A DNA stretch of 50,048 bases from Escherichia phage vB_EcoS_IME347. The notes below the pieces were generated by a model, which ran no database searches, was not told where the DNA came from, and saw only the letters and a program-made list of their open reading frames with translations. Below are positions 13,869 through 17,205 of this stretch, piece after piece. The stretch lies in sequence record MH051918; one strand, 5' to 3'. Position 1 is the stretch's first letter. Every line of letters starts with the position of its first letter. Position numbers and translations under genes: made by a program.

Positions 13869-14975
13869 ATGAAGGCAAAGCAAAGGTTCGACAGTGTAAA
13901 AATCAAGGCGCACTTTGATGAACATGGTTTCTTGGTTGACCGTCCGATCGTGGCGCGAATCGGCGCTCAAACGTACCGCACCCCGCATGGGGATCGAGTT
14001 GAGTTCCGCCCGGCCTCGGAGGTTTTCAAGGCTGAATCTCTGGAGACTTATGCGGGCAAGCCCGTAACTATCGGTCACGTAACCGTAAATCCAGACAATG
14101 CGGAAAGCGTGGTTGTGGGATCTTGCGCTGGCTCTGGAATCCCGTCCGGGATCGGGGTTGAGGTTCCAATGTCAATCTACAGCCAGCGAGCGATCGACAA
14201 AGCGAAGTCGAAGGCGGCGGCGGAAATCTCCGTGGGCTACACGTCCGAAGATATCGAAAAGCCGGGTTGGGGTTCCAATGAAACTGGCGAATACATCTTC
14301 GAAGAGGATATGAAGCAGGACGAAGCGCCCCCGGCTGGATGGGTTCACTTTGACGCCCTGCAAACGAACATCAAAGTTAATCACGTCGCGCTTGTGTTTA
14401 AAGGCCGTGCGGGAATCGCTAAATTGAACCTTGATAGCGAGCAGGAATTCCCGTATGATAACGACGTTGACACAAACAAAGAGGATAATGAAATGACTGT
14501 AAAAATTAAGATCGACTCCGCAGAAGTGGAAGTGACCAAGGATGTTGCCGCACACATCGAAAAGCTGAATGCTGAAATCGCAACTGTTCAGGGCAAGGCC
14601 GATGGTCTGGAAGCTGAACGCGATAACCTGAAAGAGAAGGTTGACGGCATCCCGGCGCAAATCGAAGCGGCTGTAGCTCAGGCGAAAGCTGACGCTGAAG
14701 CAATGACCGCGCTTATCGCTCTCGCCTCCGAAGCTGGCGTGAAGTGTGACGGTCTGGACGCTAAAGGAATCAAGGTAGCATTCATCAAAGAAACTACCGG
14801 GAAAGATGTTTCCACCAAATCAGACGCCTATATCGAAACAGCTTTCGACTTTGCGAAAGATTGTGATAACATGGCCTCACAGCGTCAAAGCATTAAAGGC
14901 GATGCCGCGAAAGAAAAAGAGGACGAAAAGCCGGAACTGACTCCGAACTCTCGCCTCGCTAAACTCAACAAGTAA
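13869..14975 (+). CDS. head scaffolding / prohead-protease-like protein (putative)
   Basis: Globular N-terminal domain followed by a long Ala/Glu/Lys-rich predicted coiled-coil C-terminal half; position between portal/morphogenesis genes and capsid genes. Confidence 0.45.
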   Translation: MKAKQRFDSVKIKAHFDEHGFLVDRPIVARIGAQTYRTPHGDRVEFRPASEVFKAESLETYAGKPVTIGHVTVNPDNAESVVVGSCAGSGIPSGIGVEVPMSIYSQRAIDKAKSKAAAEISVGYTSEDIEKPGWGSNETGEYIFEEDMKQDEAPPAGWVHFDALQTNIKVNHVALVFKGRAGIAKLNLDSEQEFPYDNDVDTNKEDNEMTVKIKIDSAEVEVTKDVAAHIEKLNAEIATVQGKADGLEAERDNLKEKVDGIPAQIEAAVAQAKADAEAMTALIALASEAGVKCDGLDAKGIKVAFIKETTGKDVSTKSDAYIETAFDFAKDCDNMASQRQSIKGDAAKEKEDEKPELTPNSRLAKLNK

Positions 14976-14987
14976 GGAGAAGAAATT

Positions 14988-15464
14988 ATGGCAATTGCAG
15001 CAAGCTATCAGAAAGATATGTCTATCGCCGTTCCGGGTATGGTGGCAGACACCTCCCGTTACAACATCGACGGCGCTTGCGTACTGAGCGGTGACGTTGA
15101 TATCCTCGTCGGCGTTGCGGTTCAGGTTGACAACGTTCAGGCCGTTGACGGTCACAAAGTCATGAAGCCTATGGCATCCGGCGGCAAGGCTTATGGTGTG
15201 GCGATTCGCTCCCACTTCCAGACTAAAGGCAAAGATGGTCAGATGTACTATGAAGCGGGCGGCGGCATTAACGTAATGACCTCCGGGCGCGTTTGGGTTA
15301 TCTCCAAAGATTCCACCGCTCCGGCGTTTGGTGAAACTGTCAACTTTGACGTTGACGGACAGCAGAAAGCAGACGGCGCGATCGAAACCGCATGGACTTA
15401 TGCGGGCGGCTTCACTACCTATCAGGATTTGAAGCTGGTTGAAATCCAATTGCATCAACTGTAA
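14988..15464 (+). CDS. capsid-associated protein, paralog 1 (decoration/cement-like, putative)
   Basis: RBS AAGGAG; shares YNIDGACV..GVAVQV..YGV..RS..GRVWV motifs with the next ORF. Confidence 0.5.
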   Translation: MAIAASYQKDMSIAVPGMVADTSRYNIDGACVLSGDVDILVGVAVQVDNVQAVDGHKVMKPMASGGKAYGVAIRSHFQTKGKDGQMYYEAGGGINVMTSGRVWVISKDSTAPAFGETVNFDVDGQQKADGAIETAWTYAGGFTTYQDLKLVEIQLHQL

Positions 15465-15473
15465 TAAGTAGCT

Positions 15474-15522
15474 AATATAGGGATTACCTTTTGGTAGTCC
15501 CTTTTTTATTGGAGGTAATAAA
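15474..15522 (+). promoter_or_regulatory. late leader module: TAATATAG + hairpin + UUUUUUAUU + GGAGG
   Basis: Hairpin gggattacc..ggtagtccc at 15480-15502, T run at 15503-15510, GGAGG at 15511-15515. Confidence 0.5.
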
Positions 15523-16017
15523 ATGTCTGATTATGGTAATTTGTCTTTGGGGGTTAGCTGTCCCGGCCTCCTGTCCGATACGTCGGACTATAATATCGAC
15601 GGCGCTTGTGTGGCTCGTGGGGAAATTCCTTTTGGTGTCGCTGTTCAGGTTGTCGAGATCGTGGATGGTGTCAAGGTTGTCTCCGCGCTGAGTGACGGCA
15701 AGCCGTATGGTGTGTCGATGCGATCGCAATACGAAAACTTGTCGGGCGTGGTTCAGGACGGCGAACCTGTGAGCGTTATCTCTCATGGTCGAGTTTGGGT
15801 TCGCACCTCTCTGGAGGATTCGCCCGCTTTCGGTGAGAAGTTATCCTTCGAATCTGGCGGAGAAGTATCTGAGGCCGGGGAGGCTGGCTGGCCTTTCGCT
15901 GGAGGTTTCGTTAAGTTTGGTGAGGGCTGGATTGTAGAGGTTCAGGTTTTGCAAAACCGATACTACATCCCACCTGAGCCGGAACCTGAACCAGAACAAG
16001 ACCCGGAAGAGCCGTAG
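15523..16017 (+). CDS. capsid-associated protein, paralog 2, with Pro/Glu-rich C-terminus ending at an amber codon
   Basis: Paralogous to 14988..15464; the C-terminal PEPEPEPEQDPEEP is followed by TAG and then 20 further in-frame Pro/Glu-rich codons up to TAA at 16078-16080. Confidence 0.5.
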   Translation: MSDYGNLSLGVSCPGLLSDTSDYNIDGACVARGEIPFGVAVQVVEIVDGVKVVSALSDGKPYGVSMRSQYENLSGVVQDGEPVSVISHGRVWVRTSLEDSPAFGEKLSFESGGEVSEAGEAGWPFAGGFVKFGEGWIVEVQVLQNRYYIPPEPEPEPEQDPEEP

Positions 16018-16100
16018 CCGGAAGATCCTGAACCGGAAGAGGGAGGCGAAACTGACCCGGAAGAAGGTTCAGAGGGTTAACACAAAAACAGTTTGACGCT

Positions 16101-16118
16101 TTAACAAAAAGTGCTATC
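16101..16118 (-). promoter_or_regulatory. intergenic motif copy (TTAACAAAAAGTGCTATC, reverse variant) upstream of the capsid gene
   Basis: Reverse complement matches the AATAGCACTTTTTGTTAA variant; followed by a hairpin plus T run at 16121-16147. Confidence 0.4.
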
Positions 16119-16167
16119 ATAAAGCCGTTATCACTTAACGGCTTTTTTCACAAAAGAGGATGTAAAC

Positions 16168-17145
16168 ATGACTAAGAAATATGACGAATTCGAAGCAACC
16201 GTAGTTGGCTCCCACCTGAAGATGCGCGGTGAAAAAGCCGATGCTGATACTCTCGGTATCTGGACTGCTCAGGAGCTTCACAAGCTGAAAAATCAGTCTT
16301 ACGAAAAAGACTATCCGGCAGGTTCCGCTCTGCGAGTATTCCCGGTAACTAACGATCTGTCCCCGGTTGATAAGACCTTCGAATATCAGACCTTTGATAA
16401 GGTTGGTATCGCGCAGATTATCACCGACTACACCGATGATCTTCCTCTGGTTGATGCTATGTCGTCCAGCGAGTTTGGCAAAGTTTTCCGCCTCGGTAAC
16501 GCATACCTGATTTCAATTGACGAAATCAAAGCAGGTCAAGCAACTGGCAAGTCGCTGTCTAATCGCAAGGTTAACGCCGCGCAACTGGCACACGATCAGT
16601 TAGTCAACCGCCTGGTGTTTAAAGGTTCTGTTCCTCACAAAATTGTGAGCGTGTTTAATCACCCGAACATTACCAAGATCACCTCCAAAGGCTGGACGTC
16701 AACCGCTGGTAGCGTAGTAACCAAAAACCCGGAAACCGCAGAAGAAGAACTGACGGCGGCTATTGAGTCGATCCAGACTCTGACGATGGGCGCACACCGT
16801 GCAACGCACATCCTGATCCCGCCGTCAATGCGCAAGGTTCTGACTGTTCGTATGCCTGACTCCACTGAAAGCTATCTGGATTACTTCATGAAGCAGAACG
16901 GCGGAATCACCATCGAATCAATCGCGGAACTGGAGGATATCGACGGCGCTGGCACGAAGGGTGCTCTGGTTTACGAGTACGACCCGATGAATATGTCCAT
17001 CGAAATTCCTGAAGCGTTCAACATGCTTCCTGCGCAGCCGAAAGACCTGCACTTCAAAGTGCCTTGCACCTCTAAGTGTACTGGTCTTACGATTTACCGC
17101 CCACTAACGATTGTCCTGATTACAGGACTTGCAGTAAGCGAGTAA
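16168..17145 (+). CDS. major capsid protein
   Basis: 325-aa ORF with AAGAGGA RBS in the canonical position after scaffold and accessory capsid genes. Confidence 0.7.
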   Translation: MTKKYDEFEATVVGSHLKMRGEKADADTLGIWTAQELHKLKNQSYEKDYPAGSALRVFPVTNDLSPVDKTFEYQTFDKVGIAQIITDYTDDLPLVDAMSSSEFGKVFRLGNAYLISIDEIKAGQATGKSLSNRKVNAAQLAHDQLVNRLVFKGSVPHKIVSVFNHPNITKITSKGWTSTAGSVVTKNPETAEEELTAAIESIQTLTMGAHRATHILIPPSMRKVLTVRMPDSTESYLDYFMKQNGGITIESIAELEDIDGAGTKGALVYEYDPMNMSIEIPEAFNMLPAQPKDLHFKVPCTSKCTGLTIYRPLTIVLITGLAVSE

Positions 17146-17153
17146 ATTGATTA

Positions 17154-17205
17154 CTATAGGGACTCATTAATTTGAGTCCCTTTTTTATTATCTGGAGAAA
17201 CCAAA
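17154..17205 (+). promoter_or_regulatory. late leader module: TACTATAG + hairpin + UUUUUUAUU + GGAG
   Basis: Hairpin gggactcattaatttgagtccc at 17158-17180 followed by a T run and RBS. Confidence 0.5.

Follow-up and report, generated by a model that had tools for sequence, protein, structure and literature searches.

The TAG codon that ends the gene HOT14_gp37 of Escherichia phage vB_EcoS_IME347 (positions 16015-16017) is very probably a single recent nonsense mutation, an ordinary tolerated truncation of a capsid cement protein and not a decoding trick. The window, that is the whole stretch of 50,048 nucleotides analysed here (sequence record MH051918), carries this codon in a gene whose relatives are read further. 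In the proposed course of events, the mutation fell in the disordered acidic Pro/Glu tail of a cement protein of the type of phage T1 gp48, and it took 20 C-terminal residues from a low-complexity appendage exposed on the surface while sparing the beta-tulip core that binds the capsid. With this core intact, the phage is fully viable and the allele has spread, and the 60 bases beyond TAG would still look coding because there has been too little time for their decay. By homology to T1 gp48 the tail is presumably dispensable and outward-facing, and its truncation appears to have been neutral or nearly so.

The gene end and its two stop codons

The ORF of HOT14_gp37 runs on the + strand from ATG at 15523 to TAG at 16015-16017 (164 codons), and these coordinates were confirmed. 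Its translation ends in ...PPEPEPEPEQDPEEP before the amber codon, and the same frame continues beyond TAG with PEDPEPEEGGETDPEEGSEG, 20 codons long, up to TAA at 16078-16080. The features of the locus are as follows.

15523 to 16017, + strand: gp48-like ORF as now ended, 164 amino acids and TAG (HOT14_gp37, T1 gp48 orthologue)
15523 to 15969, + strand: beta-tulip cement core, about residues 1-149, intact and conserved (alignment to residues 3-156 of T1-like gp48)
15970 to 16014, + strand: kept part of the acidic Pro/Glu tail, PPEPEPEPEQDPEEP, 15 codons, with in-phase short repeats
16015 to 16017, + strand: derived premature amber TAG, after Glu-Glu-Pro and with C as the next base (window and L012-L018)
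16018 to 16077, + strand: stranded remnant of the ancestral C-terminus, 20 codons, PEDPEPEEGGETDPEEGSEG, homologous to translated sequence of L009, L010 and L011
16078 to 16080, + strand: ancestral stop TAA, the first three bases of a conserved intergenic block, aligned with the stop in every relative examined

The earlier note, made from the letters alone, had placed an in-frame amber codon within the Pro/Glu-rich C-terminal tail of a capsid-associated protein, and the coordinates, the frame and the cement homology described below bear this out. Its remark that the similar composition on the two sides of the stop is unlikely by chance also held. Among the 20 residues after TAG, 18 (90%) are P, E, D or G, against a proteome frequency of 0.237 (binomial P ~7e-10), and in the window 53 ORFs have an in-frame extension of 8 codons or more, the runner-up of which reached a fraction of 0.33. 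The likeness of composition across TAG is thus far beyond chance. The 20 open codons alone are not significant, with an expectation of (61/64)^20 ~0.38. Homology of the segment to translated sequence in orthologues, as aligned below, is stronger evidence than its composition.

On the opposite strand, a minus-strand ORF of 69 codons (15911-16120) overlaps the repeat tail and the conserved intergenic block, and the RefSeq annotation of phage SRT8 carries a 38-codon minus-strand 'gp26' across the corresponding block (L002 2867-2983, - strand). Both calls lie on low-complexity or regulatory sequence and are probably spurious.

HOT14_gp37 as a gp48-type cement protein

The 164-residue product is an exact match to the protein on record, YP_009800873.1 / AWD92237.1, named 'hypothetical protein HOT14_gp37'. 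Its residues 9-141 matched the structural cement protein family PF22758 (Phage_cement) with 82.9 bits against a cut-off of 27 (E 3.2e-23), and the protein matched phrog_1989 with an E-value of 3e-49. Among PDB structures, residues 4-155 were aligned with 9KZJ_H (E 7.7e-58) and 9KMH (E 4.7e-56), where the entry is a 255-residue 'decoration protein gp29 / BIG2 domain-containing protein'. The Big_2 Ig-like domain (PF02368) gave no match in HOT14_gp37, and the alignment has the acidic repeat tail in that place. The Pro/Glu tail starts at the position of the poly-Pro linker of T1 gp48. The neighbouring head genes are given below.

13869 to 14975, upstream of the cement pair: prohead protease, DUF2213
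14988 to 15464, + strand: first of the tandem cement paralogues, 158 amino acids, T1 gp49 orthologue (PF22758, E 1.7e-28; PDB 9KMG-type)
16168 to 17145, + strand: major capsid protein gene, next downstream, 325 amino acids (PF09950, E 5e-57)

The gp49-like protein matched the 158-residue 'cement protein II' (PDB 9KMG), and it is a paralogue of the product of 15523-16017, both belonging to PF22758. The order protease, gp49-like gene, gp48-like gene and major capsid protein gene recurs in SRT8, IME-JL8, BrunoManser and T1. The first three of these are the nearest relatives in the GenBank phage collection (genus Sertoctavirus, about 82% nucleotide identity). On these alignments HOT14_gp37 is the orthologue of the T1 cement/decoration protein gp48. 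As both the core and the synteny agree, the version without an Ig-like domain is best read as a tail variant inside the family and not as a non-member, and an acidic Pro/Glu repeat tail replaces the Ig-like domain in the IME347 lineage.

In T1, gp49 (158 amino acids) forms 80 homotrimers and gp48 (255 amino acids) contributes one subunit to each of 60 heterotrimers, which gives 60 copies per capsid (PMC11945409). The heterotrimers lie at the quasi-threefold axes with gp48 and gp49 in a ratio of 1:2, gp49 supplying two of the three subunits (PMC11945409). By cryo-EM, residues 2-153 of gp48 make the beta-tulip core on the capsid surface, and residues 154-255, the Ig-like domain, are outward-protruding, flexible and not resolved (PMC11945409). 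By analogy, the IME347 tail would project outward from 60 sites per capsid and would not be needed for capsid binding.

In the metagenome relative L018, the DUF2213 prohead protease/scaffold gene (positions 1013-1880, 368 residues) was called as two ORFs of 194 and 90 residues, so that this essential head gene would either carry a frameshift or nonsense change or be misassembled.

TAA as the canonical stop and the conserved intergenic block

Two Logan protein clusters (P0001 and P0002, about 89% identical) hold short-tailed proteins ending in ...EPEPDPDPEPDA and a stop. In their DNA the TAA aligns with the second stop of the window at 16078-16080, and the sequence 3' of it is identical to the window until a few bases before the ribosome-binding site. 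The same TAA, which opens the block TAACAYAAAAACASTTTGACGCTTTAACAAAAAGTGCTAT, is also the stop of the gene in SRT8, BrunoManser, T1 and other T1-like isolates. The C-terminal modules of SRT8, BrunoManser and the T1-like isolates are unrelated to the acidic tail, yet the TAA is common to all. In the T1-like loci that extend far enough upstream, the frame is open from the N-terminal YNIDGAC motif to TAA, the IME347 clade and L011 being alone in having internal stops; none is present in the short-tail clade or in the loci bearing an Ig domain. Since the frames of relatives run unbroken to the aligned TAA, TAA at 16078-16080 is the canonical stop of the gp48-like gene and TAG at 16015-16017 is derived.

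The intergenic stretch 16081-16167 is nearly invariant from IME347 through SRT8 to T1 while the flanking genes diverge by 12-40%; the anchor pattern selects for part of this conservation. Two elements were delineated in it.

16093 to 16120, + strand: strong sigma-70-like promoter, TTGACG, 16-nt spacer, TATCAT, with a TG extension (TGcTATCAT); a T1 promoter is annotated there
16124 to 16148, + strand: terminator-like hairpin, GCCGTTA-TCACT-TAACGGC followed by T6; a T1 terminator is annotated there

The GenBank annotation of T1 has a predicted promoter and terminator at the equivalent of this block. The hairpin adjoins the promoter, sits upstream of the ribosome-binding site of the major capsid gene and differs in the T1 type by a compensatory change of one base pair from T-A to G-C. 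A promoter firing into a terminator-like hairpin is odd, and the arrangement could act as a 5' stabiliser or an attenuator for the capsid mRNA; the promoter belongs to the setting of the gene end and has no bearing on recoding. Besides, two near-alike terminator-like hairpins (AGGGA...TCCCT followed by TTTTTATT) were seen at 15479-15502, after the gp49-like gene, and at 17158-17181, after the major capsid gene. A hairpin with a T-run therefore follows each of the gp49-like, gp48-like and major capsid genes, as is also predicted in the T1 annotation.

Orthologues with and without TAG

All the informative relatives came from protein-cluster and contig look-ups and not from the GenBank phage collection, which held no close relative with an acidic tail; there the best nucleotide match was 82% identical (Sertoctavirus) and the best protein match to HOT14_gp37 was 63% identical over the core only. 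A scan of JGI metagenomes for the pattern GGTTAACACAAAAACAGTTTGACGC gave no match, and a scan of IMG/VR for the intergenic block matched nothing beyond the window and SRT8.

The 90%-identity cluster that holds HOT14_gp37 also contains the longer members P0024 (183 amino acids, from L009 and L010), ending in ...DPEEPEDPEPEDGGETDPEEGSEG and a stop, and P0027 (191 amino acids, from L011), ending in ...DPEEPEPEDPEPEEGDETDPEEGGETDPEEGS. Sister lineages about 3% divergent read through the position of TAG and end in ...GGETDPEEGSEG and a stop, the continuous tails of L009/L010 and L011 going on to ...GGETDPEEGS(E)G. At the position of TAG, L011 has GAA (Glu), and L009 and L010 are without the six nucleotides TAG CCG. 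The sequence that follows TAG in the window is translated in L009, L010 and L011. The orthologue comparison that the earlier note had proposed thus gave a continuous ORF in the sisters and a TAG that is not conserved outside one clade, the reverse of orthologues that all stop at this position before unrelated sequence. Compared with L009, the 60 bases differ by three synonymous changes and one Glu-to-Asp change. As these few, conservative differences indicate, the segment was probably coding until recently, and for most of the time since the split.

TAG was carried by eight assemblies in three haplotypes, the window and seven others (L012-L018), out of 17 tail-bearing assemblies recovered. The sources of the seven are as follows.

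L012 and L013: SRR5239736 and SRR5239745
L014: ERR11525682
L015 and L018: ERZ28647473 and ERZ28647459
L016: ERR13245686
L017: SRR28368733

Over about 1,450 aligned flanking bases, the tail excluded, the carriers differ among themselves by 0-15 bases (at most 1%). About 40-45 bases (about 3%) separate them from L011, about 47-56 from L009/L010 and about 150-190 (about 12%) from the short-tail clade. TAG is not conserved beyond this one clade of at most 1% divergence. As the carriers form one shallow group, TAG appears to have arisen once and recently. It would most simply have come from a Glu codon, in one step from GAG or in two from a GAA such as that of L011. The recent nonsense mutation, one of the explanations the earlier note had listed, is therefore the one favoured by the canonical TAA downstream, the sense codon or missing codon of the sisters and the shallow TAG clade. 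Sequencing error, another of them, is excluded by an identical TAG in eight assemblies from different runs.

Changes after TAG and lability of the tail

The segment after TAG is in frame and has no further stops in all eight carriers. It has nevertheless changed in two haplotypes. L014 carries a charge-reversing Glu-to-Lys change, not significant against about 0.25 substitutions expected. L012 and L013 have lost one 24-nt unit (GGETDPEE, 8 codons) and gained three clustered substitutions that create an Ile, three against about 0.27 expected (nominal P 0.003), possibly as a single complex event. The unit lies at 16042-16065 of the window and is present in two copies in L011, one in the window, L009 and L014 and none in L012 and L013; as it is in phase with the codons, its loss cannot shift the frame. 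For an acidic tail the changes seen are non-conservative, and they lean to relaxed constraint, in two variant haplotypes only.

Protein length ranges from 161 to 191 amino acids among relatives that differ by a few percent elsewhere, and the spread comes from the copy number of the 24-nt unit and the number of PE/PD dipeptide repeats. The kept tail has TRF repeat periods of 12 and 15 nt. The tail thus evolves fast by gain and loss of in-phase repeats with periods of 12, 15 and 24 nt. Being rich in GAA and GAG, it is also unusually exposed to G-to-T nonsense changes.

Several further observations were made on gene ends in this family. L011 contains a second, independent amber at 1200-1208 (GGT TCA TAG GGT TAA), where other long-tail relatives have GAG. 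This TAG cuts two residues only, two codons before TAA, and its source is a single 1.7-kb metagenome contig. The tail at 15970-16080 of the window was compared with the gene ends of L023, L021 and L004. Ig-domain-bearing gp48 proteins finish in a short acidic Pro-rich stretch, ...EAVPEPEVDA and a stop (GAT GCA TAA), and the short-tail clade ends in ...DPDPEPDA and a stop (GAC GCA TAA). One possible origin of the acidic tail is loss of the Ig domain, by which the poly-Pro linker would have been fused with the terminal acidic stretch before the repeats expanded. The T1-type gp48 cluster P0011 (181 amino acids, 18 contigs), read by eye, ends in ...TDKEALNQTMLRSSV and a stop. This end is ...TDKESPQPNNVTIQCV read in the +1 frame, as would result if a 1-nt deletion had cut the Ig domain short. 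P0015, from Shigella phage vB_SsoS_008 (254 amino acids), has an aberrant C-terminal sequence that diverges from the Ig domain. Together, P0011 and P0015 suggest that loss of the C-terminal module recurs in the gp48 family.

Termination, suppression and alternative explanations

ARAGORN found no tRNA genes in the 50,048-bp genome, so the phage encodes no suppressor tRNA by this search. TAG ends 9 of the 79 ORFs of the window, and the extensions of the other eight look non-coding. Downstream of TAG, the RNA folded no better than shuffled sequence (z -1.1) and no Rfam family match was found. An origin of the 60 nucleotides by a tandem duplication that included the stop was considered and rejected, as the continuous orthologues carry the segment as coding sequence.

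IME347 came from sewage, with BL21(DE3) as the isolation host; its burst size was 145 and its titres exceeded 1e10 (PMC6499177). BL21 is a B strain that does not suppress amber codons, and synthesis halts at them (PMC2882348). Growth on this host indicates that the phage thrives with essentially only the predicted 164-residue form. The context Glu-Glu-Pro-UAG-C is a poor one for termination in E. coli. According to the work cited in PMC7246954, products ending in Glu-Pro-stop or Asp-Pro-stop are strongly ssrA-tagged in E. coli, and a C-terminal Pro slows the release of the peptide (Hayes et al. 2002; Pierson et al. 2016). Leaky termination at Glu-Pro-UAG, by stalling, ssrA tagging or near-cognate readthrough, is plausible from this context, and a low level of unprogrammed readthrough at 16015-16017 is possible. 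Such stalling or readthrough would be a by-product of the place of the mutation in a Pro/Glu repeat and not evidence of design.

A functional leaky or programmed readthrough would yield mostly 164-residue and a few 185-residue subunits, the mixture being selected as with the Q-beta coat protein and A1. The slow-terminating, highly ssrA-tagged Glu-Pro-stop context documented in the sources cited above speaks for it, and so do the widespread TAG allele and the in-frame, intact extension of all eight carriers. A common allele with a kept frame is also the counterpoint to a simple truncation, as a used extension would show the same. We nonetheless judge this reading very unlikely, because TAG is limited to the shallow clade while the sisters have Glu or no codon, the RNA downstream has neither unusual folding (z -1.1 against shuffles) nor an Rfam match, and the changes after TAG are non-conservative (Glu to Lys; an Ile insertion with 8 codons lost). 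Basal UAG readthrough in sup0 E. coli is low, and at such a rate most virions, at 60 copies per capsid, would have no long subunit at all. The two isoforms by programmed or suppressor-dependent readthrough that the earlier note had entertained are likewise disfavoured by the single shallow clade, the missing suppressor tRNA and RNA structure and the growth on a non-suppressor host. A gene dependent on suppression, in which normal hosts suppress the amber and the full 185-residue protein is made, could appeal to the supE that some laboratory K-12 strains carry, but it is extremely improbable for a sewage isolate propagated on BL21(DE3), whose growth there contradicts it, with the same allele in metagenome assemblies and no phage tRNA. 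Nothing was found in favour of a sequencing or assembly error, or of a genome-wide reassignment of amber, and their likelihood is close to nil. Eight assemblies of separate runs, on three haplotypes, share this TAG, and reassignment was rejected as there is no tRNA gene and just one of the nine TAG-ending ORFs has a coding-like extension, the others being ordinary and non-coding-like.

Adaptive truncation, in which the stop is a nonsense mutation but not a neutral one and was selected since a shorter tail is advantageous, is also unlikely. The cut tail of 15 residues is near the length in the short-tail clade (about 12-20 residues) and the allele was recovered from many samples; however, tail length is continuous among relatives (161-191 amino acids in total) with no sign of an optimum, and frequency among recovered assemblies is no measure of selection. 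A more speculative view, to which we attach a very small probability, takes the tail as a hypermutable contingency appendage whose length is tuned by repeats and by reversible Glu-to-amber changes, the poor Glu-Pro-UAG context yielding a small selected long-tailed fraction per virion. It is compatible with the two independent ambers, in the IME347 clade and in L011, and with the frame-preserving changes after TAG, and if true it would be a DNA-phage analogue of Q-beta coat/A1 that arose de novo. Under the tolerated nonsense mutation that we prefer, the truncation may have been neutral or mildly advantageous.

Implications for annotation and capsid display

The protein family, its capsid role and nonsense truncations as such were already known. 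What is new is the assignment of HOT14_gp37 as a gp48 orthologue, the acidic-tail variant in place of the Ig domain and the recognition of the annotated stop as a derived amber followed by a 20-codon remnant. HOT14_gp37 can accordingly be named a gp48-type cement/decoration protein instead of a 'hypothetical protein', and its annotation can mark the 60 bases that follow the stop as what is left, stranded, of the ancestral C-terminus. The TAG clade would be a natural experiment in which the distal 20 residues of the tail are dispensable for growth of a T1-like phage and, more broadly, the family would offer one in which the whole C-terminal module of gp48-type proteins is dispensable for such growth, which would be useful if this position were considered for capsid display. 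The locus also carries a caution. As a single substitution turns GAA into TAA or GAG into TAG, coding-like composition past a stop is to be expected whenever a low-complexity, Glu-rich tail has recently acquired a nonsense mutation, and it is not in itself evidence of recoding.

Comparison with known systems

The closest known system is T1 gp48 itself (AAP49952.1, 'IgG-domain-containing decoration protein'; 9KZJ, 9KMH), with about 60% identity over the beta-tulip core (E ~1e-58), the same gene order, the TAA in the conserved intergenic block and a Pro-rich linker starting at the matching residue. It differs in its C-terminal Big_2 Ig-like domain of about 100 residues, where IME347 has a short acidic Pro/Glu/Asp tail that is cut further by TAG. 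The Pseudomonas phage proteins E217 gp24 and Pam3 gp6 (PF22758) are distant; the core of HOT14_gp37 scores above the gathering threshold of this family (82.9 bits vs 27), and the profile match stops at residue 141, with nothing in the profile that corresponds to the acidic tail.

Recoded C-terminal extensions of capsid proteins are well known. A1 of Q-beta is a readthrough extension of the coat protein, and the 10A/10B pair of T7 and frameshift-added Ig-like domains belong to the same group. HOT14_gp37 resembles Q-beta A1 and T7 10A/10B as a capsid-surface protein with in-frame coding-like sequence past its stop. In systems of that type, however, the recoding site is conserved in the family and the extension is selected and needed, whereas the IME347 stop is derived and belongs to a single shallow clade, relatives have a sense codon there, and the phage grows on a host that does not suppress amber. 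Classical amber mutations of phages change a sense codon to TAG, shorten the product and leave the downstream frame intact. The IME347 TAG likewise shortens its product and keeps the frame downstream, but unlike the classical ambers it is natural, lies in a tail that would be dispensable, needs no suppressor host and circulates in the environment.
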